Shown in pieces: positions 18,743 through 35,068 of a stretch of 64,000 nucleotides of DNA (the first letter of the stretch is position 1; each line of letters opens with the position of its first letter). The notes beneath the pieces are model-generated. The model did not search any database. It saw only the letters and a list, made by a program, of their open reading frames with translations, and was not told the origin of the DNA. The stretch is from the NCBI GenBank assembly GCA_000004695.1, contig CM000151.3, forward strand, positions 8,384,001 to 8,448,000, read 5' to 3'. The position numbers and the translations under genes are program-made. Source of the stretch: Dictyostelium discoideum. Its lineage: Eukaryota.

Positions 18743-21700
18743 ATGTCAGAACCAAAACCAACTCAACCAATCAAAGAGATTGATGAGGAAACTAAAAGAA
18801 AGAATGAAGAGAAAAAGAAAGCCAAAGAGGCAGAGAAAGCAGAGAAATTAGCAAAAATGAAAGAAAAGGAAGCTAAACAAGCAGCAGCAAAAGAAAAAGA
18901 ATTACAAAATAAACTTAAAAAAGAACAAGAGAAAAAAGAAAAAGAAGCTGAAGAAAAAGAAAAACAAGAAGCTGAAGAAAAAATTGTTAGAGAACATATT
19001 GAAAAAATTTTAAAAACCCCAAAGGGTGAAAAGAAAGGTAAATAATTTTATATTTTATATATATATATTATTTTTTTTCAAATGATTTATTAATATAAAA
19101 ATTTTATTATTATTATTAAAAAAAAAAAAAAAAAAGATGTTTCAAGTTTATTATCATCATATCATCCAACAGCAGTTGAATCAATTTGGTATGATTATTG
19201 GTTAGATAATGGATATTTTTCACCAGAGAAACAAATGGAGATTCAACCACATGTAGTTAAAGATAAAAAGTTTGTAATTGTTATTCCACCACCAAATGTT
19301 ACAGGTAGTTTACATTTAGGACATGCATTAACCAATTCAATTCAAGATGCAGTTGTTCGTTATCATCGTATGAAGGGTGAAGTTTGTTTATGGGTACCAG
19401 GTACAGATCATGCAGGTATTGCAACACAAGTAGTTGTAGAGAAAAAGATTTGGAAAGAGAATAAGATCACTCGTCATGATTTAGGTCGTGAAGGATTTAT
19501 AAAGAAAGTTTGGGAATGGAAAGGTGAATATGGTGCACGTATTCAAGGTCAATTGAAAAAGATGGGTTCATCAGTTGACTGGAGTCGTGAGGTATTCACA
19601 ATGGATGATCAACGTTCAAAAGCAGTAAATACAGCATTCATTCGTATGTTTAATGATGGTTTAATCGTTAGAACCACACGTTTAGTCAATTGGTCATGTG
19701 CATTGAAGACTGCCATCTCTGATATTGAGGTAGATTTCATCGATTTAGAGAAACACACTAAAATGTCAGTACCAGGTCATCAAGGTCAATATGATTTTGG
19801 TGTACTCTTTGAATTTGCCTACCAAGTCGAAGGTAGTGGTGAGGAATTGGTAGTTGCAACCACTCGTATCGAAACTATGTTGGCAGATACAGCAATTGCC
19901 ATTCATCCAGATGATACACGTTACACTCATCTTCATGGTAAATTTGCAATTCATCCATTGAATGGCCGTAAGATTCCAATCATTACCGATTCAGTTTTGG
20001 TAGATAAAGATTTTGGTACTGGTGTTGTCAAGATTACTCCATCACATGATCCAAACGATTATGAAACTGCACTTCGTCATGGTTTAGAGTTTATCAATCT
20101 TTTCACTGATGAAGGTTTAATCAATGAGAATGGTGGTGAACGTTTTGCTGGTATGAAACGTTTCGATGCTCGTAATGCTGTTGTTGAAGCATTGAAAGAG
20201 AAGAATCTTTTCAAGGGTATGAAGGATAACAAGATGAGATTAGGTCTTTGTTCACGTTCAAAGGATGTCATTGAACCAATGATTAAACCACAATGGTATG
20301 TTAAATGTGACGATATGGCAGCACGTGCCGTTAAGGCTGTTCGTGATGGTGATTTGAAAATCACTCCAAAGACTCATGAAGTAACTTGGTATCGTTGGTT
20401 AGAAGGTATTAAAGATTGGTGTGTCTCTAGACAATTATGGTGGGGTCATCGTATTCCAGCCTACCATTGTATTATCAAAGGTGTTAAATCAAATCCATAC
20501 GATACCAATCAATGGGTCGTTGGTGCCAATCAAGAGGAGGCCACTCAAAATGCAATCGAGAAATTTAAACTTTCAAGCAAAGATGATATCTTATCATTGG
20601 AACAAGATCCAGACGTTTTAGATACTTGGTTCTCAAGTGGTTTATTCCCATTCAGTGTTATGGGTTGGCCAGAACAAACTCAAGATATGCAAGATTATTA
20701 TCCAACAAGTCTCTTGGAAACTGGTTCCGATATTTTATTCTTTTGGGTTGCTCGTATGGTTATGATGGGTCAACAATTAACTGGTAAATTACCATTTGAA
20801 CAAGTTTTCCTTCATGCAATGGTTAGAGATTCACATGGTAGAAAAATGTCAAAATCATTGGGTAACGTTATCGATCCAAATGATGTAATTAAAGGTATCT
20901 CTTTGGATGAATTAATCGCTAAACTCTATGAAGGTAATTTAGATTCTAAAGAAATTGAAAAAGCAACCTCTGGTGTTAAATCCGATTTCCCAACTGGTAT
21001 TGCAGAGTGTGGTACTGATGCAATGAGATTTGCCCTTTGTGCTTACACTTCACAAGGTCGTGATATCAATTTAGATATTCAACGTGTCGTTGGTTATCGT
21101 AATTTCTGTAATAAGATTTGGAATGCCACTAGATTCGCTCATATGAAATTGGGTGATTCTTTCAAACCGGAATCATTTGATGCCTCAAAACTTTTACAAC
21201 AATCAAATGCTATCAATCTTTGGATTCTTAACGCTGCTCAACGTGCTATCACCCTCTCTGAAGAAGGTTTCAAAGAGTACGATTTTAGTAAGGTTACCAC
21301 TGCTATCTATAGTTTCTGGTTGAATGAAATGTGTGATGTTTATCTCGAAATGACCAAATCCATTTTCTCACTCGAAGAAGATTCACCAATTAAACAAAAA
21401 ACCAAAGAAACCCTTTACACTTGTATCGATATTGGTCTTCGTTTATTACATCCATTCATGCCATACCTCACCGAGGAGTTGTATCAATCATTACCACGTC
21501 GTCCAGAAGATGTCATTCCAACCATTATGTTATGTCCATACCCACAATCTCAATCATGTTGGGCCAATTCTGACATTGAGGAAGAAATGAAACAATGTCA
21601 AGATATCATCAAATCAATTCGTTCACTTCGTGCTACCTATACCATTCCAGCCTCTAAAAAACTTCACACTTATCTTCACGTTAAAAATCAAGAGAATCTC

Positions 21701-22060
21701 GAACGTTTCACTAAAAACTCTTCATTCATTCGTGTTTTAGCTTATGCCTCTGAACTCGAAGTTTCCATTAGTGATGAATCTCGTCCTGGTTGTATCGTTA
21801 ATGTTGTCAATGAAAATGTTTCAACCCTTTTAGATGTTAGAGGATCTGTTGATTTCAATCTTGAAATTGCTCGTCTCGAAACAAAGAAACAACAATTGGT
21901 CAAAAACTATGAAACTTTAGTTTCAAAAACTACCATACCTTCTTATGATAAAGTTCCACAAAATATCAGAGATGATAATACTCAAAAAATTAAAGCTTTA
22001 GATGAAGAAATTAATATTACAAACAAAACCATTGAAAGTTTTACAAAATTAAATATTTAA
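18743..22060 (+). CDS. valS1: valyl-tRNA synthetase (class I aaRS), 2 exons
   Basis: Exon 1 is 18743..19037 and encodes the Lys/Glu-rich N-terminal extension typical of eukaryotic ValRS. Intron 19038..19137 is GTAAAT...AG in phase 1. Exon 2 is 19138..22060 with the HIGH motif [19 protein letters not shown] motif [11 protein letters not shown], the editing domain and a C-terminal coiled coil. Confidence 0.9.
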
Positions 22061-22381: not shown

Positions 22382-23197
22382 ATGATAATTATTCTAATTG
22401 TTTTTATTATATTGACATTTAATAATATAGTTAAAAGTGAAGTTATTCAATTTATTGAATGGGATAATATAACACAAATAAATAATTTGCATTTAGAGTT
22501 TAAAATGGGTTCAACAGTTTTATTTTCAGTTTCAAATAATACAGGTGATCATAACATAGTTATTAAAGAATCTTTTTTTAATTCTTCAGAAACATTAATA
22601 AAATCACCAATACTAAATTTTAATAATAATCAAATTTACTTTATATATACATTTATTAAAGATGGAAATTATTTAATAACTGATGATTTCTCAAAAAATT
22701 CAATGGATATTAAAATTTCCTCTCCTCAATTTAATCAACAATCTTCAAACTCTTCAAAATCTTTAAATTATGATTCTTTAAATAATATCACATTCAGTAG
22801 TAGTAGTAATGACAATGATGGTAATAGTAATGAAATTTCTCAAGAAAATGAAAATTTGGATTTTAATAAATTTTTTAAAGATTCAAAAGAGGAATTGAAT
22901 TATACTTATTCAACAAATTTAAATAATAAAAAATCAATTTATGACTTTTTTTCAAATTTTACAATTTCTTCATCAAATTCAACAATTAAAAATTCAACAA
23001 AATCAAAAAAACCAACCACTATAATTGTTCGTAGTCATCATAATGAAAACTCAGACATTCTTTTAAACTCTGATTCAAACTCAAATTCAAACTCAATTTC
23101 TAACCAAAATTCACACCAAAATTCAAATTCTAATTCAATACAACCACCTTCTATATATTATTTAATTATCTATGTATCGATTTTATTTATATTTTAA
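22382..23197 (+). CDS. GPI-type Ser/Thr-rich surface glycoprotein with cupredoxin-like (ENOD/phytocyanin-like) N-domain
   Basis: Single exon. It has a signal peptide, an approximately 100-aa domain (GSTVLFSVSNNTGDHNIVIKE ... DGNYLITDDFSKNSMDIKIS) that resembles the plastocyanin GxxVxFxNNxGxPHNVVF / GxYxFYC...M..V.V layout but has no Cys, an S/N-rich linker, and a C-terminal hydrophobic tail IYYLIIYVSILFIF. Paralogous to the genes at 29951 and 32365. Confidence 0.6.
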   Translation: MIIILIVFIILTFNNIVKSEVIQFIEWDNITQINNLHLEFKMGSTVLFSVSNNTGDHNIVIKESFFNSSETLIKSPILNFNNNQIYFIYTFIKDGNYLITDDFSKNSMDIKISSPQFNQQSSNSSKSLNYDSLNNITFSSSSNDNDGNSNEISQENENLDFNKFFKDSKEELNYTYSTNLNNKKSIYDFFSNFTISSSNSTIKNSTKSKKPTTIIVRSHHNENSDILLNSDSNSNSNSISNQNSHQNSNSNSIQPPSIYYLIIYVSILFIF

Positions 23198-23366
23198 ATA
23201 AAATTTTTTTTTTAAAGCCAGTGTGGTTTGGGGTGTTTTTTTTTTTTAAAAAAAAAAATTAATGCCAGAAAGTTTTGTAATTTCAAAAAATACCTAGAAA
23301 GTTTTGTAATTTCAAAAAATACTCAGAACTCTTAACTTTTCAACAATTTTTAATTTTTTTTTAATT

Positions 23367-23415
<49 letters not shown>

Positions 23416-23483
23416 GAAACCACAAACCGGGAAAAAAAAAAAGTTTTAAAAAATTTTTTTTTTTTCTTTGTTTTTCTTAAAAA

Positions 23484-23633
23484 ATGTCAGGAGATTCAAA
23501 CTATGATATAGTTAAGAAAGAGTTTTTTAATTTATCTCATTATGTTATCTCTATATATGATTCATTAAATATTTATTGTACTTCTTTAAAAGGTAATTTA
23601 ACTTTATTACTATTATTTTTTTTTATCTACACA

Positions 23634-23668
<35 letters not shown>

Positions 23669-26405
23669 CTCTTTTGAAAATAAAGAATTATATTTAGGTT
23701 CAGATAGTTTTATAAATACAACAAGTAAATGTTTAGAACCAGATCATCCATTATCAAAATATAGTTTAGGTATAAAAAGTGAAATTGAAAATAGCTTTAA
23801 TGGTTGGAGTAATAATCAACAAGAGAATTTTCAAAAGTTGGTTAATTATTTAAATGGTTTAGAGAGTGCAAGATTAAAGATTGAAAATTTTGATAATAAT
23901 GGTTTTAGAGATTTTAAATTAAAAACTGAAATATTTAAAGATGTTAACAATCTATTCGATTCAAAATCTGAAAATTTCGATATCCCATTAATCAATATAC
24001 AATTCTCATTTAATAGTTTATTTCAATCAATTAATTCAATTCATAATAGTTTTTCTTTTATCTTACAACAGCAAATTAAATTTAAAAGTCCAGTTTCATC
24101 TTTACAACCTGTATCACAACCAATTTCTAAACCAAGACCAACTTCTGTAATATTACAAAATCAACAACAGCAACAACAACAACAACAAAATGATAATAAT
24201 AATAATAATGTTCAAACAACACCTATTGTACCAAATAGACCAACATATAAGCCACCAATACAAAGACCATTGTCTACTAATTTAAATAATGTTAATAATG
24301 GTAATTCTAATGTTGGTAGTTTGAGAGCTGCACCTGCTCCTATTTCATCTTCAAATGTTGAACAACCACAAAAACCAGTTACACCAACATATAAACCACC
24401 AACCCAAAGACCATTATCAACAAATTTAAGTAGTGGTGTTGTGAGACCTGCTCCTATTCCTATTTCTACTTCAACTGAAGAACCACAAAAACCAGTAACG
24501 CCAACATATAAACCACCAACACAAAGACCATTATCAACAAATTTAAGTAATGGTGTTGTGAGACCTGCCCCTATTCCTATTTCTTCTTCAACTGAAGAAC
24601 CACAAAAACCAGTAACACCAACATATAAACCACCAACACAAAGACCACTATCTACAAATTTAAGTAATGGTGTTTTAAGACCTGCACCACCACCATCTAT
24701 AAATTCTACACCTACATCTTTACCTTCTCAACCCACACCTAATACATTTAAAAAACCAAATTATATAAAACCAATGCCAGCATCACAAGAACAACAACAT
24801 CAACAACAACAACAGCAACTACAACAACAGGAGCAGCAATCAATAAAACCTCAACCAACTCCATCTTTCCAACGTCCAACTCCATCTTTTAATAAACCAT
24901 CACCATCACCATCACCATCAACTCTTGCTCAACAAACACAAACAACAGACTTTCAACCTCAAAGACCCCCACCACCATCAATTCAACCTCAAAGACCTCC
25001 ACCACCATCAACTCAACCTCAAAGACCTCCACCACCATCAATTCAACAACAACCAGTTCCAGTTGATAATAGCTATAATAAAAATGAAAAGAAAAAGGAT
25101 TCACTATCACTTTTTGGAAAGAAATTATCAACAGCATTCAAAAGTTTGGATGTTTCAAGTGGTTCTAGTTCTGGAAGATCTTCAATGATGGGATTTGGAT
25201 TTCCTACTGATATGCTTGGTCCAAAACTTGAAGATATAGTAAATGATTTTGAATATCATAAAAAAAGTAAAGTATCTACATTTTTTTTTATTATTATTTT
25301 TATTATTATTATTATTTTTAATTATTTATTTTACTAATTTTTATTATTTTTTAGAATGGGATGGATATGGTAAAAGATTTAAATTGGTTAAAAAGTATAC
25401 ACAATCAATAAGATGGGTTGGCCATGGTAGTGCAAAGATTGAAAGTGGTAAACCAATTCCAAATCAATTGATTACAATGATTCTTACAACACCAATAACT
25501 ATGCAATCACAAGTGATAACCTATTCACAAGTTGAATTTAAAAATTCAAGAGGTAATGTCGTAACACCAACCATTGTTGAAATTCCAAATTCAGAGGTAT
25601 CCATTTATCAAGCAGATTTTCATGGTCCTCAAGAGTTTGATGAATTCTTTTGCGAGAACATTGTTGAGGCGGATTTATTCTCAATCAATTTGGAAGAGAT
25701 AAAGTCAACTCAGGAACAATCACCTTATGTTGAACCATTATCAGAGAAAGAGAATGAAATTTATTTAGTTTTTACACCAACTTTGAATTTTAATGAACCA
25801 GAGTTTGCACAATTTATTGAAAGAGAAGGATTATATCCTCAAATTGATGGAGCAAACCAACAACAAGAGACATTGTTATGTTTTGCCTATAGAGTTAGTT
25901 TATATATCAAATTACATATCTCTTATGAGATCAGTTGTGGTGATCAAAAACCATTGGTAACAATTAATAAAGGTTTAGGAAATTGTTCATCTTATTCAAA
26001 TCTATTCTGTTCAATTATGAGATATAATGGTATACCTTGTAGAATAGTTAGTGGTGTGGTTTCAAGAAAAAATAATGTCATTGATGAACCTCATGGTCAA
26101 AATGAATTTTATTTACCAAATATTGGTTGGATACCTTATAATGGTGCTGTAATGGGTGGTCCAAATGATAATTCAATCGCTTTTGCAAAATGTTTTGGTG
26201 ATCTTTACTCTTATATGATTGATACTCATATCAATTTAAGTTATGATCAACAATCTAAATCAGAACATACAGAGAGACAAAGTATTTGTGGTGAAATGGT
26301 ACCAACAAAATGTTATTTTCAACATGGTTCAACACCTTCTTTTGGTGCTCCTAAAAGTGAACATGAATTCACAAGAATTGATAATGGCGGAGTTTTAGAA
26401 TTTTA

Positions 26406-26406
<1 letters not shown>
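23484..26406 (+). CDS. Pro-rich repeat protein with C-terminal transglutaminase-like (Cys-protease fold) domain, 3 exons
   Basis: Exon 1 is 23484..23592 (MSGDSNYDIVKKEFF..., phase-1 donor GTAATT). Exon 2 is 23686..25266 and carries 3 copies of the 39-aa repeat PVTPTYKPPTQRPLSTNLSNGVVRPAPIPIS...EEPQK, then QPQRPPPPS x3 and poly-Gln. Intron 25267..25354. Exon 3 is 25355..26406 with GLGNCSSYSNLFCSIMRYNGIPCRIVSGV ... PHGQNEFYLPNIGWIPYNG, which matches the TGase-like GxCxxYA..F..L.R..GIP.R.V.G + His core. Confidence 0.65.
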
Positions 26407-26446
<40 letters not shown>

Positions 26447-26518
26447 TAATAAATTTAAATGTTTTTCATTTTGTAATAGTATAATAAATGTTACAATAAT
26501 TTTTGTACAATTTTTTAT

Positions 26519-26745
26519 TTAATGACAAGCACCACATTTTGCAGAGGCAGCGGCAGCAGCTGAAAGTGAGAGATCAACTTTGGCTTTAATATCAATGTTT
26601 GCAAGGATTGCTGCACCTGCTGCTGGTTTATCACATCCACCACATGCAACACTGTTTGAACCCATTGATAATGATGAACCACTGAAAGAATTTAAACTTG
26701 ATTTTGATGAAGTGTTAGTTTTTGAGATTGAGGTAATTGAAGCTA
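26519..26745. repeat. left arm of 227-bp inverted repeat (about 97% identical to 27656..27882)
   Basis: The reverse complement of 27656..27882 matches 26519..26745 with only a few substitutions. Each arm carries exon 2 of an hssA-like gene. Confidence 0.9.
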
Positions 26746-26833
26746 TATTTTTTGGATAAAAAAAAAAAAGTTAATATATTTTAATAAATAAATATATAAA
26801 ATTAATTAATAAACATTTACAAAAGAGTGTCAT
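26519..26833 (-). CDS. hssA/2C/7E-family-like small Ser/Gly/Cys-rich protein, copy 1 (2 exons)
   Basis: Minus-strand exon 1 is 26833..26821 (ATGACACTCTTTT, donor GTAAAT); intron 26820..26743 ends in AG. Exon 2 is 26742..26519, giving [77 protein letters not shown]. The coding island is much GC-richer than its surroundings. Confidence 0.6.
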
Positions 26834-27529
26834 TTTTAATTAATTTTTTATTTTGATTTGAAAAAAAAAAAATAAAAAAAAATAACTATTTATAGTTTTT
26901 ATAAATTAAATATAAATGATTAATTATCTTAAAAATAAAATTTTTTGTTGTAAAACATTTTTTCAAAATATTTTATCGTTTCATAATTTTTTTTTTGTTT
27001 AAATCTAATATCTATTAATCATATATCTAAAAACCACATTTTAATTTTTTTTTTTTTTTTTTATTTTTATTTTTATTTTTTTTTTATTTATTTATTTATT
27101 TATTTTTTTTAGACATAATTGACATTTTAAATTATATTTAATTTTTTAATTTATTTTTTAATTTCAAAATAGTCTTTCTATTTTTAAAATGTTTTTTTGA
27201 CAATCTTTATGAAATAAAATAAAATTTTATCTGAATGTAATGTTTTTTTTTTTTTATCAGATAAACATTAACTACTTCTTTTAAAAGATATATTAATTAT
27301 TAATTATAATAAAGATGATATATTATGGATTTGGGTGTGATTTTTATAGTAAAAAATTAAAAACTCATTATAATTAATAAAATAAAAATATAAATAAAAA
27401 AAAAATAAAAAAAATAAAAATAAAAAAAAAAGAAAAAAGAAAAAAGAAAAAAATAAAAAAAAAAACTATAAATTAAAATTAAAATTAATTATATTTTCAT
27501 TAAACAATCAATCAAAACAAATTATTAAA
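26834..27529. promoter_or_regulatory. shared divergent 5' region between the two head-to-head hssA-like genes
   Basis: A 696-bp AT-rich spacer lies between the two divergently oriented ATG codons at 26833 (minus) and 27530 (plus). A bidirectional promoter is inferred from this geometry only. Confidence 0.3.
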
Positions 27530-27881
27530 ATGACACTTTTCTGTAAATATAATATAAAATAAATATTATTTATTAAATATTTTATAATATTTTTATTTTA
27601 AATACTAATATTTAATTATTTATTTTCCAAATTTTGTTAAAAAAAAAAAATAATTAGCTTCTATTACTTCAATCTCAAAAACTAACACTTCATCAAAATC
27701 AAGTGTAAATTCTCTCAGTGGTTCATCATTATCAATGGGTTCAAACAGTGTTGCATGTGGTGGATGTGATAAACCAGCAGCAGGTGCAGCAATCCTTGCA
27801 AACATTGATATTAAAGCAAAAGTTGATCTCTCACTTTCAGCTGCTGCCGCTGCCTCTGCAAAATGTGGTGCTTGTCATTAA
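27530..27881 (+). CDS. hssA/2C/7E-family-like small Ser/Gly/Cys-rich protein, copy 2 (2 exons)
   Basis: Exon 1 is 27530..27542 (ATGACACTTTTCT, donor GTAAAT); intron 27543..27657. Exon 2 is 27658..27881, giving [77 protein letters not shown]. Exon 2 is the inverted, near-identical copy of 26519..26742. Confidence 0.6.
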
Positions 27882-27882
27882 A
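27656..27882. repeat. right arm of 227-bp inverted repeat
   Basis: See left arm. The arms are separated by a spacer of about 910 bp of AT-rich DNA that contains both 13-nt first exons. Confidence 0.9.
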
Positions 27883-28295
27883 TAAAAAAAAAAAAAATTG
27901 CAAAAAATTATTGTAATTTTAATCAGTAACATTACCAAATAAATTTTAAAAATATAAACAACCAATATAAAAAAAAAAAAAAAAAAAAAATTGATTATTT
28001 GTGAATTTTAAAGAATTGAGAAACACTAATAAAAAATTATCAATGAAATGATTTTTAAAATAATCATTTTCATATCCAAAAAGGTTTTTTAGTTTTTTTT
28101 TAAAAAAATACTTAAATTTTAAAGTGCCAAAAAAATTTTTCTAAAAATATCTTTTTCTAATATCTAATTTTTTATTTTTTTAATTTTTATTTTTATTTTT
28201 TTTTTTTTATTGACGTTTTTCAATTTTATTTTTAATATAAAATCCAAACAAAAAAAACCATTGTCATTATTTTTAAAATCAATACTCTATTTAAA

Positions 28296-28932
28296 ATGCT
28301 TACTAATAGATTTTCAATTATTTATATAATATTTTTAACTGTGTTCACATTCACTGGTGTAAATTCAACTAGCTTGTTTTCATTTACTCATGAAACTGAT
28401 AATTTTTTCCAACTTGATTTATTAAATGGTGATTTAGCTGTAAATCATACCATTTATCAAACTCTTAAATATTATCATGTTATTAATTATGATTCAAATT
28501 CCCAAGTAGTAAGTATAAAAAAAATAAAAAAAATGAAAAAAAAAAAAAAAATAAAAAAATAAAAAAAAAAATAAAAAATCTCATCTTTAAATCTAACAAA
28601 AAAAAAAAAAATAAAAAAAAAAAAAAATAGTTTACCTTATTTTGTAGTAATGGTAGTATGTATGATGGAGGTATCAATTATATGTCATTAAAATATAGCG
28701 TAAAACATAATAAATTCTATGACGAAAGTGAATCAGTTTTAGTAGATGCTCAATTTGTATACACTTCACTTTTTCAATTGGTTAACAATGTTTATTATGT
28801 ACCAATTATTTTAGATTCTTATCAAAGATATTCAATGTTGGCAATTGATTTTAATCATAATTCAAGGTATTTAATTATTATTATTATTAATATTATTATT
28901 TTATACGTAATTAATTATTCTAATCTTTTTTT

Positions 28933-28964
<32 letters not shown>

Positions 28965-29542
28965 CTACAAATAAAAGTAATATTATTGATTTTGAAATGG
29001 ATGATTTTAATTTAGGATATTATCCAACAAGTAATTTTAACAATCAAACTAATAAACTTTATACATTATATTTTGGTGCATATGGAAATCCATATATTCA
29101 AGTTTTAAATTTACCAATTAATAATGGAAGTGAAAGTGGTCAAGAAGTTTATAAATTCAAAGCACAAATGCCAGTTCTCTCAAATTTAAATCCAATTGGT
29201 CAATTATTTAGTGTTCGAAATAATGAACAAATTTATTATATTACAAGAATTAATGATAATCTTGTTGTTTGTGAAATTGATTTAGAGAATTTAGAATGTA
29301 ATAATGTATTTTCAATTGGAAATATATATACCAATATGGATACCTCATACTTTTTCTCTTATGAAAATTCAGAATTAATTTCAATTCAAGAAATTTTAGA
29401 TCAACATAGTAATCCAATTGGTGCTGAATATCAAGTGGTTGATTTAAATAATTTCAAAGTTAAAAATACCTATAAAAGTTCTGATCTCTTTAGTAAAGGT
29501 CCAAATAGTCTTGATAATTTCTTTTATTTTTCAAATAATTAA
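28296..29542 (+). CDS. secreted protein of unknown function, 3 exons
   Basis: Signal peptide MLTNRFSIIYIIFLTVFTFTGVNS. Exon 1 is 28296..28508 (donor GTAAGT), exon 2 is 28631..28866 (donor GTATTT, phase 2) and exon 3 is 28978..29542. Several N-glycosylation sequons and no TM helix after the signal peptide. Confidence 0.55.
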
Positions 29543-29643
29543 AAAAAATATATATTGTCACGATTTCATTAAAATTAATAATATTTTAATAAAATATATT
29601 CATTTGTGGTTTGAATAAATGATATATGATTTCTTTTGGAATT

Positions 29644-29693
<50 letters not shown>

Positions 29694-29800
29694 ATAATCT
29701 ATTTTAAGAAATAATTTGTATAATCACCTATCCAAAAAAATAAATTTGTTTTGTGGTTAAAATGTTTTCAGTAAAATTATATCACTATTTTAAATAATTT

Positions 29801-29837
<37 letters not shown>

Positions 29838-29950
29838 CTCTAAACAAAAAAACTATAAATAATTAAAAAAAAATTTAATAATTATTAAATATAGATTCAT
29901 ATTTTAAAATAATATAAAAGATTTAATTTTATAATAAAAAAAAAAAAAAA

Positions 29951-30547
29951 ATGTTTAATTCTATTAAAACTTTAATTTTATTAATATTATGTTTTTCCAA
30001 TTATTTTATTTTTTGTCAAGAATCAGTACATACAGTTAATATAGATAATTTTCCACCATTGTTGACATTATTTAATGGTTCAACAATATTATTTGTAGTT
30101 GGATTGAATACTGGTGATCATATTATTTTTACCAAGGTAACACCAAAAGGTGTTCAACCATTTACATCACCAGTTTTAAATTTACGTAGATTACAACCAT
30201 CATTTTCATATACTTTCAGTGATGCCGGCAAATATGTTATAATGGATATGTATACCTCTGAAGAAATGAATTTAACAATTATTGATACCTTATCACCATT
30301 GTCATCATCATCATCATCATCTGATTCAACCAATAATCAATCAAAATCTTCCTCTTCCAACTCTGTAAATGCAAGTTCATCATCAACAAAACCTCCAATT
30401 TCATCTTTGGAAACTGATTCTTTAAATAATTCAACTTCAACCACAACTACAACTTCTAAATCGTCACATGAAAAGAATGAATCAATTCAACTTTTAAGTT
30501 CATTTAGTAATTTGATATTCATTTCTATCATATTATTATCACTTTAA
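29951..30547 (+). CDS. GPI-type Ser/Thr-rich surface glycoprotein with cupredoxin-like N-domain (paralogue of 22382, 32365)
   Basis: Single exon. Signal peptide, then GSTILFVVGLNTGDHIIFTKV ... DAGKYVIMDMYTSEEMNLTII, a poly-Ser/Thr linker and a C-terminal hydrophobic tail LIFISIILLSL. Confidence 0.6.
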   Translation: MFNSIKTLILLILCFSNYFIFCQESVHTVNIDNFPPLLTLFNGSTILFVVGLNTGDHIIFTKVTPKGVQPFTSPVLNLRRLQPSFSYTFSDAGKYVIMDMYTSEEMNLTIIDTLSPLSSSSSSSDSTNNQSKSSSSNSVNASSSSTKPPISSLETDSLNNSTSTTTTTSKSSHEKNESIQLLSSFSNLIFISIILLSL

Positions 30548-30919
30548 AAAATTTAATAAATAATAAAATTTATATTTTTTTTTTTTTACACTCTTTGTTT
30601 TTTTGGATACCAAAAAAAACGATAAACGAAAATCTAAAAAAAAAACACCCCACTGTTTTTTTTTTAATTGTTTTTTAATTTTTTTTTTTAATTTTTATTT
30701 TTATTTATTTTTAAAACAATGTGATCTCTGATTATTTTTAAAAAAAAAAAAAAAATAATAAAAACAATTAAATAAAACTACACAAACTTTAAGAAGTTTT
30801 TAATTGTTGATTAGATTATTTTAATTAACGTTTTAAGACTGATTTTAAAATTCCAATATTTTTTTAGGAAAAGATGATTTGAATTTATTTATTTTTTTAT
30901 TTTTTTAAATCTTTTTTTT

Positions 30920-30950
<31 letters not shown>

Positions 30951-31809
30951 TTTAAAATAAAAAATAAAAATAAAAATAAAAATTGTAGTTATTATTTATT
31001 TTTTAAAATATTATGATTATTAGTATTATTTTTAAATATAAATTAATAAAATAAATGTAATTAGGCAAAATTACTATTTCAATATCAAAATCATAAAACT
31101 TATCAAAATAAATTTATAAAATATTTTTTGGTGGATAACTAAAATCAATGAGTTCAAACAATTGTGTTTCAAGTATTAAAAAATTTTAATAACCATGTGG
31201 TTTCTATATATTTTTAACCTCTCCATTTTAACTGGTTGTTATTAGTAATACCAGTGGTTTTTTTCAAATATTGCTAAAAAAAATAATTAAAAAATTAAAA
31301 ATGTTTAAAAATTAAAACAAAATATATATAATCATACAATACAAAATTACAAAAAATAAAATTTTTATTTTTAGATTTCCTCATGTGTGGTTTTTTTTTT
31401 TTTTATCAGTAAAAAGAAAAATTGTTAATATCACTTTTACATGATGAATTAATTTGGTTGTGAATTATTCTATCATCAAAAATTCTTATTAAAATAAAAT
31501 TTCTTTGTTCAAATGTATAATAATAATAAAAAAATTAATAAATTCAAATAATAAAATTTTAAAAAAAAATAATAATAAAATTTTGAATTAAAAAAAAAAA
31601 AAAAAGTATAAATAAAAAAAAAAAAATAATAATAATAACAACAACAATAAATAATATTAAACAAAAACTTCTAAAAAAAAATATATAATTAAAATGACAA
31701 TTATTGGTAAATTATTTATAAAAACTTAAAAACTATTTTAAAATTTTATTTATTTTATTAATTTATTTATTTCATTTAAATAATAAAAAAATAAAATAAT
31801 AGAATCTAT

Positions 31810-31986
31810 TTATTCATTATCCCCAGCATTATCACCAAAAACTGGACCAACTAACTCAAATCTTACTCCAATAAATGATCCATTGTTATTATCACCAAAT
31901 CCAAGTGGACTACACGGTGGCGCATCACCAAACCTAAAAGCTTGCCTTAGAAACAAACCCTTACTCATAAATTTTGATCTTAACAT
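31810..31986 (-). CDS. small ORF (58 codons from ATG; 66 from track start) in an isolated GC-rich island; protein or ncRNA uncertain
   Basis: This approximately 190-bp stretch is about 40% GC and is flanked by intergenic DNA that is less than 15% GC. The minus-strand ORF reads MLRSKFMSKGLFLRQAFRFGDAPPCSPLGFGDNNNGSFIGVRFELVGPVFGDNAGDNE* and contains a repeated (R/G/V)FGD(N/A) motif. No recognisable family. Confidence 0.25.
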   Translation of the reverse strand: MLRSKFMSKGLFLRQAFRFGDAPPCSPLGFGDNNNGSFIGVRFELVGPVFGDNAGDNE

Positions 31987-32055
31987 GACTACAATCTCAT
32001 TCAATTTCAATGGTCCACATTGTGGTTGTAATTAAAGAAGGAGTTATCAAAAAAA

Positions 32056-32087
<32 letters not shown>

Positions 32088-32364
32088 AAAAAAAAAAAAA
32101 AACAAAACTAACCAAAAAAAAAGATAATTTGTATCAAATCCAAAATAAAAGTTTAATCAACTTATTTTTATTCACTTTTTTTTATTATCTTATTTTTTTT
32201 TTTTTTTAATTTTTGAAACAAGTTTAATAAAAACTGTATTCTAATTTTTAAATGTATTTATAAGAATTTAATTTTTTTTTTTTTTTTTATTTTCATTATT
32301 ACAATTTTTTAATAAACAAATAAATAAAAAAAAAAGTTAAATAAAAAAATATATAATAAAAAAA

Positions 32365-32961
32365 ATGAAAGAAATTAAATTTAATATTCAATATATATTA
32401 ATAATTTTAATGATTAGTATTAATATTTTTGTCAAATCACAAAATAGTAGTACTGTTCAATATGTTCAATGGGATAATTTACCATCATCAGGTTTCGATA
32501 TTACATTAATCTCTGGATCAACTATTCTATTTGTTGTATCAAACAAAACTGGTGATCATAATGTTTACTCAAAGGAAACACCACCTGGTGTTGAAAAGTT
32601 CTCTTCAGGTACTTTAAATTTTAGAAATAATCCATCATTCTCTCATAAATTTAATGATATTGGTGATTATTTAATCATTGATCAAATTAATAAAACAAGT
32701 GGTGAAATGAAATTATCAATTATTTCAAACTCTTCAAGTGAATTTATAAATCCAAATAGTACATCAAGTGAATCAACCTCATCATTGTCCTCTTCAATTT
32801 CAAATTCAAATTCAACTTCAAATGAAACTACAACATCAACAAATTACAATCATACAACCTCAACTATTACTGAAGCTCCATCTGGAAATGATGCCTCCAC
32901 AATTAGTAAATCAATCTATTCTTTTGTTATTATTGTTATTTTAATCTTTTTTTACCTTTGA
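32365..32961 (+). CDS. GPI-type Ser/Thr-rich surface glycoprotein with cupredoxin-like N-domain (paralogue of 22382, 29951)
   Basis: Single exon. Signal peptide, then GSTILFVVSNKTGDHNVYSKE ... DIGDYLIIDQINKTSGEMKLSII, an S/T-rich linker and a C-terminal hydrophobic tail IYSFVIIVILIFFYL. Confidence 0.6.
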   Translation: MKEIKFNIQYILIILMISINIFVKSQNSSTVQYVQWDNLPSSGFDITLISGSTILFVVSNKTGDHNVYSKETPPGVEKFSSGTLNFRNNPSFSHKFNDIGDYLIIDQINKTSGEMKLSIISNSSSEFINPNSTSSESTSSLSSSISNSNSTSNETTTSTNYNHTTSTITEAPSGNDASTISKSIYSFVIIVILIFFYL

Positions 32962-33275
32962 TTTTAAAATAAGTCAATAATAGAGATTTTATCCTTAATT
33001 AATAAAAATTATAAAAATGATTTACATTTTTTTTTTTTTCCAATCTACACTTTCTTTTTTTTTTTCCAATCTACACTTTCTTTTTTTTTTTTTAAATCCC
33101 AAAAATTATTTTTGAATCCCAATATTTTTTTTTTTTTTTTTTTATTTTTCTTATGGGGGGTAATTAATAATAGAAAAACCTTTTTATTTTTTTTTTGAGA
33201 TTTTTACCAGTCAAAAAAGATTTTTTTTTCATTTTTTTTTAAAGACACACGTTCCAAACCATAAATATTTAATTT

Positions 33276-33325
<50 letters not shown>

Positions 33326-33391
33326 TGAAACTTTGTTTTTTTAATTTTTTTTAATTTTTTTTAAAATTGAAATAATATAATAAATAAAAAA

Positions 33392-35068
33392 ATGATGAAA
33401 GCCAAGTAAGTATTTTTTTTTTTTTATATTATTTTATTTATAAAAATAAAACACAACAGATTTTTTTTTATTATATTGATTTCAAAGTTAAAAATAAAAA
33501 AATAAAAAATTAAATAAAAAAAAAATATAAAATAAAAAAAAAAAAATTATATTGCCGAAACACAAAAAAAAAAAAAAAAAATTATATTACCGAAACCTAG
33601 ATTTATTAGGAATCTCCACCCAAAAAAAAAAAAAAAAACAATAAAATTAAATTATTTTTATTAATTTATTTTTATTAATCTATTTTTATTTTATTTTATT
33701 TATTTTTTTTTTTTTTTTTTTTTTTAAAGTAAAATTATAAAATTATTTAAAGGTACAGTTATACATTCAATAGAGATTGGTAAAGTTGAAATTTTACCAA
33801 ATTCATTAATTGGTATTGATGAAGATGGTGTAATTCAACATATGAAATCAAATTATGAAGATTTGAAACAATTAGAAAAGGATGTAACAATGATTTGTAC
33901 AGATAATGGTATTAATGAGCAAGAATCAGTGATTGATATGGGTAATAAATTTTTAATTCCAGGTTTTATTGATACACATGCTCATGCACCACAATATCAT
34001 AATGCAGGCACAGGTACAGATTTACCATTATTAAAATGGTTAGAGAAATACACATTCCCAGTAGAGAGTAAATTCAAGGATTTAATATTTGCGGAGAATG
34101 TTTATGGTAAAGTTGTAGACCGTATGTTACGTCATGGTACCACTACCTGTTGTTATTATGCAACCATTCATTTGGAGGCAAGTGAACTATTGGCAGAGAT
34201 TGTATCAAAACGTGGTCAACGTGCATTCATTGGTAAAGTTTGTATGGATCGTCATTCACCAGATCATTACGTTGAGACTACAGAACAATCAATTTCCAAT
34301 ACTAAAGAGTTTGTAGATAGAATTCTCGCCAAAGGTAACCCATTAGTTCAACCAATTGTCACACCACGTTTTGCACCATCATGTACCGATGAACTTATGG
34401 TAGCATTGGGTAATCTATCACATGAGAAACAAACTTTAATTCAATCACATCTCTCTGAAAATAAAGATGAGATTGAATGGGTCAAATCTTTATATCCAGG
34501 TATTGAAAGTTACACTCATGTCTATAAACATTTCAATTTACTCAATGAACGTACCATTATGGCTCATTGTGTTCATTTATCAGATGAAGAGATTAAATTA
34601 ATTTCAACTCAACAAACTGCCATCTCACATTGTCCAATTAGTAATTTCACTTTAAGTAGTGGTAATCTTGATGTTAGAAAGGTTTTAGAAGCAAATATTA
34701 AATTGGGTTTAGGTTCTGATATATCTGGTGGTTATCATCCTTCCATTCTTCAAGTTATTCGTGACTCTATCAAATGTTCAAATTCTCACTTTTTCAACAA
34801 TGGTAATCATACACCATTAACCTTTGAAGAGGCTTTCTATTTAGCAACTGTTGGTGGTAGTAAAGTTGTAAACTTGGATCATCGTATTGGTAATTTCATT
34901 GTTGGTAAAGATTTTGATGCTCAAATCATTGATCCATTCGTTCAAAATTCACCATTTGATTGTTTCGATGGTGAAACTTTAAAAGATATTTTCCAAAAAT
35001 TCATTTATCTTGGTGATGATAGAAATCTTTCATCATTATATATTAAAGGAAATAAAATTAAATTTTAA
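33392..35068 (+). CDS. guaD: guanine deaminase (amidohydrolase superfamily), 2 exons with 14-nt first exon
   Basis: Exon 1 is 33392..33405 (ATGATGAAAGCCAA, donor GTAAGT); the intron 33406..33729 is AT-rich. Exon 2 is 33730..35068 in phase 2, giving MMKA N KIIKLFKGTVIHS... (compare human GDA HIFRGTFVHS), the metal-binding FLIPGFIDTHAHAPQY, and a colinear amidohydrolase core to the C-terminus. Confidence 0.85.

Follow-up and report, generated by a model that had tools for sequence, protein, structure and literature searches.

We analysed three genes of unassigned function, here called A, B and C, in a window of 64,000 nucleotides from Dictyostelium discoideum (assembly GCA_000004695.1, contig CM000151.3, positions 8,384,001 to 8,448,000), and all positions below are counted from the first letter of this window. 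The G+C content of the window is ∼17–36%, and the proteins encoded in it are identical to entries of D. discoideum AX4. The three genes are open reading frames (ORFs) that run uninterrupted from ATG to stop codon:

22382..23197, + strand: gene A (DDB_G0277735, Q86KU1), 271 amino acids (aa); exact AX4 protein match, annotated as 'hypothetical protein', with orthologues in four other genomes.
29951..30547, + strand: gene B (DDB_G0277769, Q54Z78), 198 aa; AX4 protein match, annotated as 'hypothetical protein', with the same architecture as A.
32365..32961, + strand: gene C, 198 aa; architecture as in A and B, and the most constrained of the three paralogues.

The genes form a loose same-strand cluster spanning 10.6 kb, in which B and C are neighbours with 1.8 kb between them and A lies 6.8 kb upstream of B (starts 7.6 kb apart), with two unrelated genes in between. 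An initial annotation, made from the sequence alone, had described them as three dispersed paralogues. The three paralogous ORFs were confirmed, but the word 'dispersed' was an overstatement for genes clustered within 10.6 kb on one strand.

Paralogy was evident from the N-terminal domains alone, which were compared with the whole window by tblastn and recovered each other with E-values between 1e-10 and 3e-21 (A–B 1e-10, A–C 1e-13/1e-14, B–C 3e-21). The next best match anywhere in the 64 kb had an E-value of ∼0.4, and because nothing else scored below this value, the window contains exactly three copies. The paralogues are 35–51% identical, with a domain identity of 50% between B and C, and they carry the motifs noted initially, i.e. 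GST(V/I)LF.V...TGDH(N/I)(I/V) followed 41–44 residues later by G.Y.I.D.

Signal segments, linker composition and tails were determined by simple hydrophobicity and composition analysis together with a heuristic scan for omega sites, the candidate attachment sites of a glycosylphosphatidylinositol (GPI) anchor. Each of the three proteins has a signal-like N-terminus, a domain of ∼90–95 aa, a Ser/Thr/Asn-rich linker and a hydrophobic tail which ends the protein. The linkers contain 30–56% Ser+Thr and 10–21% Asn, with 7–9 N-X-S/T sequons per whole protein, and the tails consist of 15–16 hydrophobic residues up to the last residue, with small residues suitable as omega and omega+2 sites 4–12 residues upstream. 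The corresponding segments are as follows:

22382..22438, + strand: A, predicted signal peptide, aa 1–19, MIIILIVFIILTFNNIVKS (hydrophobicity profile; -3/-1 rule, V-K-S, by eye).
22439..22723, + strand: A, cupredoxin-like domain, aa 20–114 (alignments; fold from homology to B, E 5e-10 to 5e-13).
22550–22552, 22682–22684 and 22703–22705, + strand: A, key residues His57, Asp101 (at the position of the copper-ligand Cys) and Met108.
22724..23122, + strand: A, linker, ∼30% Ser+Thr and 21% Asn; 9 N-X-S/T sequons in the whole protein.
23123..23197, + strand: A, GPI-type signal with candidate omega residue Ser248 (SNS), spacer NSIQP, tail PSIYYLIIYVSILFIF and stop codon (omega scan; tail conserved in orthologues).
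29951..30016, + strand: B, predicted signal peptide, aa 1–22, which holds the only two Cys of B.
30017..30286, + strand: B, cupredoxin-like domain, aa 23–112, the sequence that was modelled.
30119–30121, 30245–30247 and 30266–30268, + strand: B, key residues His57, Asp99 and Met106.
30287..30475, + strand: B, linker, ∼55% Ser+Thr (composition).
30476..30547, + strand: B, GPI-type signal with candidate omega residue Asn176 (NES) or Ser169, tail SFSNLIFISIILLSL and stop codon (omega scan).
32365..32439, + strand: C, predicted signal peptide, aa 1–25 (hydrophobicity analysis).
32440..32730, + strand: C, cupredoxin-like domain, aa 26–122 (50% identical to the B domain).
32557–32559, 32680–32682 and 32707–32709, + strand: C, key residues His65, Asp106 and Met115.
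32731..32886, + strand: C, linker, ∼56% Ser+Thr (composition).
32887..32961, + strand: C, GPI-type signal with candidate omega residue Asn175/Asp176 (NDA/DAS), spacer TISK, tail SIYSFVIIVILIFFYL and stop codon (omega scan).

Hence the rule-based scan bore out the layout that had been proposed, with a signal peptide, a domain, a Ser/Thr-rich stalk and a GPI-type tail, the last made up of a polar spacer, a terminal hydrophobic stretch and small omega and omega+2 residues. The tail of C is kept in the uninterrupted ORFs of all orthologues. In Dictyostelium csA, the last 25 aa suffice as a C-terminal GPI signal (PMC2119896), and the terminal segments of A, B and C resemble it. The mature forms of all three proteins contain no Cys, as the two Cys of B lie inside its signal peptide.

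The fold of the domain was predicted for B with AlphaFold2 (AF2), using an alignment of 14 sequences that spans all three paralogue groups. The best model reached a predicted local distance difference test score (pLDDT) of 92.2 and a predicted template modelling score (pTM) of 0.83, and contains strands at residues 4–8, 15–19, 23–27, 37–41, 62–66, 71–77 and 83–89 and a short helical turn at 56–58. When this confident model was compared with the PDB by Foldseek, all 50 of the 50 matches listed were cupredoxins, including pseudoazurin, plastocyanin, amicyanin and a nitrite reductase domain, with a best E-value of 2.5e-6 and TM-scores, normalised to query length, mostly of 0.6–0.76. Structural scores for umecyanin (7.3), mavicyanin (7.1), plantacyanin (6.5), ephrin-A1 (7.2) and PKD domains (7.0 and 6.3) were below those of the plastocyanin group. 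After superposition, sequence identity was 17–24% to the plastocyanin group and 8–14% to most of the non-cupredoxin sandwiches listed, which fits distant homology better than mere analogy of fold. Moreover, all indels between the paralogues fall in loops of the model, which is a Greek-key beta-sandwich superimposable on small blue copper proteins, as expected for the cupredoxin superfamily. Thus, the model predicts for the B domain the cupredoxin fold that the initial annotation had proposed to check by this comparison, and we consider it probable that the domain adopts this fold, with a PKD/Ig-like (immunoglobulin-like) fold as the main alternative.

In poplar plastocyanin, copper is bound by His37, Cys84, His87 and Met92. 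These ligands were mapped onto the family by a global hhalign alignment. His37 falls on the His of the T-G-D-H motif and Cys84 on the Asp of G-x-Y-x-I-x-D, both of which are invariant in 15/15 sequences, and the spacing into the latter is exactly that of plastocyanin G-E-Y-S-F-Y-C. The Asn following the ligand His, PHN in plastocyanin and amicyanin, is kept in A and C. His87 corresponds to a gap or to a non-His residue, and Met92 to the Met starting the last strand in all B and C sequences, with Leu/Ile in three of the six A orthologues. The type-1 ligand set of His, Cys, His and an axial Met/Gln is not present. With an invariant Asp in place of Cys84, no second His in the ligand loop and no Cys in the mature proteins, a type-1 blue copper centre is excluded; judged from these sequences, such a site is impossible. 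The initial annotation had correctly stated that the first His is kept and the Cys is gone, but its further statement that the Met is replaced does not apply to B and C, where the Met position is retained.

N-glycosylation sequons are found just before the conserved His in A (NNT, 22535–22552) and C (NKT, 32542–32559), and C has another NKT (32689–32697) inside the former copper-ligand loop; B has no sequons at the His-flanking and ligand-loop positions. A glycan at the sites of A and C would cover the docking face of blue copper proteins.

Based on these data, we suggest, with a probability of about 60%, that A, B and C are cell-surface glycoproteins of the D. discoideum species group in which a copper-less cupredoxin binding module is displayed on a GPI-anchored stalk. 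The precursor would enter the endoplasmic reticulum by means of a cleavable signal peptide, and the ectodomain of ∼90–95 aa would fold into a Greek-key sandwich of eight strands, a cupredoxin of the plastocyanin/pseudoazurin/amicyanin type, as predicted for B and, through homology, for A and C. The composition of the Ser/Thr/Asn-rich stalk suggests that it may be heavily N- and O-glycosylated, and the GPI anchor that would replace the C-terminal hydrophobic tail, as sequence rules predict, would hold the protein in the outer leaflet. Since a blue copper centre cannot form, the domain is most likely not an electron carrier, and more likely acts as a stalk-displayed binding or recognition module, as in plant early-nodulin-like proteins (ENODLs), A-class ephrins and SRS antigens, with a possible part in adhesion, recognition or sensing. 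The family would have grown by local duplication under birth-and-death dynamics.

Several results weigh against this reading. Pfam searches with the full proteins and with the 15 domain sequences found no cupredoxin family even at E≤10, otherwise giving only sub-threshold PKD and low-complexity matches, and profiles built from A only, B only or C only recovered no cupredoxin from the PDB. PKD (PF00801) was the most recurrent weak Pfam match (5/15 members, best E 0.029). Signal-peptide cleavage and GPI anchoring were judged by simple rules only, a literature search found no expression, localisation or binding data on these genes, and the His and Asp that occupy two of the three strong ligand positions do not vary between paralogues of only 35–51% identity, which may point to a surviving metal site. 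With regard to the fold, support at the sequence level came from a mixed-family profile, which ranked amicyanin first among 177,635 PDB sequences (E 0.66, with the His in register), and from a 15-sequence profile, which ranked plastocyanin fourth (E 1.9). This support is fragile, because the sub-family profiles do not reproduce it. Comparison by hhalign with five cupredoxins, whose sequences match PDB chains 1plc, 4dp0, 1ag6, 1aac and 1paz residue-for-residue, yielded P 0.0023 across 59 aligned columns, the His pairing with the His, and no significant match to a cupredoxin family model (PF00127, PF13473, PF02298 or similar) was obtained. Hence the resemblance to plastocyanin from which the initial annotation had argued is not statistically significant (profile E-values of 0.66–1.9, no Pfam match) and served as a lead, not as evidence; without significant sequence similarity to cupredoxins, the assignment of the fold depends on one AF2 model. 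Were that model a wrong fold produced from a shallow alignment, the domain might instead be a beta-sandwich of the PKD/Ig-like kind, a view that would fit with the failure of four out of five AF2 models to converge (pLDDT 45–60). The family profile also pulled in bacterial multi-repeat proteins through the motif F-S-H-x-F-x-x-x-G-x-Y-x-h-x-h-x-D, its form F-S-H-x-F-x-x-x-G-x-Y-x-I-x-D resembling the F-strand region of PKD-like repeats, and hhalign to such repeats gave P 3e-5, better than to cupredoxins. However, this value is biased and uninformative, because the repeats had been picked for their similarity to the profile and only 30 columns were aligned. The Pfam matches to PKD likewise stay under threshold and cover only ∼30 residues, the gathering threshold of PF00801, the WDFGDG motif and the seven-strand topology are all lacking, and the paralogue indels respect the loops of the cupredoxin model. 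By comparison with the PKD consensus, which features WDFGDG, the domain is also ∼10–15 residues too long. We therefore regard a PKD/Ig-like fold as very unlikely.

Loss of the GPI anchor from the scheme, with the hydrophobic segment acting as a tail-less transmembrane anchor or the proteins being secreted, appears less probable still, and we would be surprised by it. It could draw on the stop codon just before the tail of B in one Dictyostelium citrinum assembly (locus L005), which would yield a secreted form, on the tail of A (IQPPSIYYLIIY.SILFIF), which is unusually well conserved for a segment to be cleaved off, and on the fact that the GPI call comes from sequence rules and no trained predictor. 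But all three proteins stop exactly at the hydrophobic stretch, with no cytoplasmic residues beyond it, small residues occupy the candidate omega and omega+2 positions 4–12 residues upstream, and the layout is that of a classic GPI signal, like the functional 25-aa signal of csA (PMC2119896). A persisting metal function concerns the copper-less part of our proposal, and although still unlikely, it is the change that we would take most seriously: the cupredoxin might bind metal in a remodelled, non-blue site formed by the invariant His and Asp, the Asp of GDH and the Met, and might function in copper, iron or zinc handling or in surface redox reactions, in the manner of FtrB/EfeO-type cupredoxins, which have no Cys, or of azurin with its Cys changed to Asp. 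Besides the two invariant ligand positions, the Met kept in all B and C sequences is in line with this, and there are precedents, as FtrB, which lacks the His-His-Cys set, binds Cu2+ with micromolar affinity via Asp118, and Cu2+ binding by Cys-substituted azurin is cited by the same authors (PMC11966278). Because Cys-less cupredoxins such as FtrB bind Cu2+, the copper-less state of A, B and C is something that we infer. On the other side, the second ligand-loop His is absent and no D-x-x-H follows the Asp, the Met is Leu/Ile in 3/6 A orthologues, GDH is GNH in A of D. firmibasis, in A and C the site has N-glycosylation sequons beside it, and a metal held by two or three protein ligands would be only weakly bound. 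FtrB and EfeO (Cup-II/Cup-I) also differ from the family in detail: FtrB uses a C-terminal pair of Asp118 and His121, with extra Glu residues for Fe2+ (PMC11966278), whereas here the His corresponds to the N-terminal ligand and none of the 15 sequences has a His after the invariant Asp, so that the FtrB/EfeO arrangement is not found; and these bacterial periplasmic proteins belong to iron-transport operons, a gene context that does not occur here.

The proposed GPI-anchored cupredoxin module can be compared with several known systems. With plastocyanin, pseudoazurin and amicyanin (PF00127 group) it shares H-N-(I/V) at the position of the first ligand His, the G-x-Y-x-x-x spacing into the Cys position and the Met that begins the last strand, and the distance from the His to the Cys position is 41–44 residues here compared with 47 in plastocyanin and 39 in amicyanin (PDB-verified sequences). 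It differs from this group by the change of Cys to Asp, the missing second His and the lack of significant sequence similarity; moreover, members of that group are soluble periplasmic or lumenal electron carriers, whereas A, B and C appear to be secretory proteins of a eukaryote that carry a glycosylated stalk and end in a GPI-type tail. ENODLs consist of a signal peptide, a copper-deficient plastocyanin-like domain, a glycosylated stalk and a GPI signal, and belong to the phytocyanins, which are described as plant-specific and in which Pro-rich glycomodules define chimeric arabinogalactan proteins (PMC3184959). The initial annotation had assigned exactly this architecture to the Dictyostelium proteins. 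The general layout agrees, with a signal peptide, a single cupredoxin domain with incomplete ligands, a low-complexity stalk that is probably glycosylated and a GPI signal, and key copper-binding residues are missing as in the ENODL subgroup, though one His (and the Met in B and C) remains. Membership in the phytocyanins or ENODLs, however, did not hold: there is no PF02298 match, the conserved pair of disulfide Cys (PMC3184959) is absent, and structural similarity to phytocyanins is below that to the plastocyanin group. Nor is the stalk arabinogalactan-like, as had been suggested, since linkers contain only 0–1 (A/G/S/T)-Pro dipeptides and 1–6 Pro each in 15/15 sequences. Thus, because arabinogalactan modules and Cys in the mature proteins are both missing, the family is an analogue and not a member of the ENODLs/phytocyanins, and the resemblance is one of architecture, most likely convergent.

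The receptor-binding domain of ephrins and the SRS antigens are considered to be derived from cupredoxins, to lack copper and often to carry a GPI anchor (PMC6485061, PMC10084454), and together with the ENODLs they are precedents for the co-option of cupredoxins as copper-less surface ligands (PMC6485061, PMC3184959). Unlike A-class ephrins and apicomplexan SRS/SAG1 proteins, to which no sequence relationship was detected, A, B and C keep one His, and the Met, of the old site; the Cys of ephrins are absent and no Eph-like receptor is implied. No paper on these genes was found in the literature on their identifiers or on Dictyostelium and cupredoxins. The theme itself, a single copper-less cupredoxin domain with a GPI anchor, is already known, and because this design has been described in ephrins, SRS antigens and ENODLs (PMC6485061, PMC10084454), the novelty is narrower than had been implied. 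Overall, part of the initial interpretation stands, namely the fold, the degenerate copper site and the GPI-type architecture, and its phytocyanin/ENOD-like and arabinogalactan-like parts fail.

Orthologues of A, B and C are syntenic in two D. citrinum assemblies and in D. firmibasis and D. dimigraforme. When 1.84 billion representative proteins were searched exhaustively with a HMMER profile, only three genuine clusters emerged, one per paralogue and all from Dictyostelium; as far as HMMER can detect, the family does not extend beyond the D. discoideum species group. With the domain alignment as query, a word-indexed homology search gave no match although orthologues exist, which is a limitation of that tool. 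We discounted 16 further profile matches (P0009–P0024), which are bacterial or other multi-repeat proteins with 3–17 short matches each that were summed, the best stretch listed being ∼25–40 residues. With long bacterial repeat proteins, the mere addition of weak matches brought the E-value of the 95-position family profile as low as 4e-22, and whole-sequence E-values can mislead for proteins of this kind.

Pairwise ratios of nonsynonymous to synonymous substitution (dN/dS) in the domain were 0.09–0.14 for C, 0.22–0.33 for A and 0.22–0.23 for B. With values of 0.09–0.33, the three are therefore functional coding genes under purifying selection, with C the most constrained. B, by comparison, is decaying in some sister species, through loss, pseudogenisation or truncation: in one D. 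citrinum assembly (locus L003, 7670–8200) it is a pseudogene with multiple stops and frameshifts and a deletion of the TGDH region, in the other (L005, 7601–8260) a nonsense codon lies just before a still-readable hydrophobic tail, and in D. dimigraforme it was undetectable (L002, 6800–10000).

Annotation of C is affected in several genomes. Gene models of C orthologues in D. citrinum and D. cf. discoideum (P0001, P0003, P0005) end in ...NLKRDINL or ...NNRDLILNQ, and at two D. citrinum loci (L003, 10001–10631; L005, 10001–10634) the uninterrupted ORFs run on into the hydrophobic tail (SKSIYSF.IIVILLFF); these annotations seem to have lost the GPI signal to a spurious 3′ intron. The exact C protein was absent from a collection of 15 billion proteins, and in the D. 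discoideum assembly GCA_054883475.1 its ORF is fused with guanine deaminase in a gene model of 618 aa, which covers 32365–35068 of the window (L006, 11408–14113). This merged model probably reflects an annotation error and conceals the third paralogue.

Around and between the three genes lie the following features:

19235–22060: valyl-tRNA synthetase gene, flanking the cluster on the A side.
23838–26406: gene between A and B with a Pro/Gln-rich N-terminal part containing three repeats of ∼39 aa (...PQKPVTPTYKPPTQRPLSTNLS...RPAPIPIS...), then a transglutaminase-core domain (PF01841, E 2e-21); annotated as a single gene of 893–913 aa in three assemblies.
28296–29542: two ORFs separated by a very AT-rich stretch, without a Pfam family, the first beginning with a signal-peptide-like segment; three sister assemblies, like a second D. 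discoideum assembly, have a single gene of 337–338 aa for the pair.
33842–35068: guanine deaminase gene, flanking the cluster on the C side.

A functional link to these neighbours (valyl-tRNA synthetase, the transglutaminase-like protein, guanine deaminase and genes without a Pfam family) was considered and rejected.

A bolder extension of our proposal is that social amoebae independently arrived at a GPI-anchored cupredoxin on a glycosylated stalk, as plants (ENODLs), animals (ephrin-A) and apicomplexans (SRS) did, starting from a plastocyanin/amicyanin-type gene that possibly came from bacterial prey, and that the invariant His/Asp(/Met) triad forms a new mononuclear metal or ligand site for surface recognition or metal sensing; in this full form we think it quite unlikely. 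The family does not resolve a long-standing question. What it provides is a predicted fold and a testable working model for three uncharacterised Dictyostelium genes, and it would extend to the Amoebozoa a pattern in which monodomain cupredoxins were repeatedly co-opted as copper-less surface proteins with a GPI anchor. As a young, lineage-restricted family in which C is strongly constrained and B is decaying, it is small and well suited to knock-out and metal-binding studies, and it may bear on the origin of cell-surface recognition molecules in lineages that became multicellular independently.

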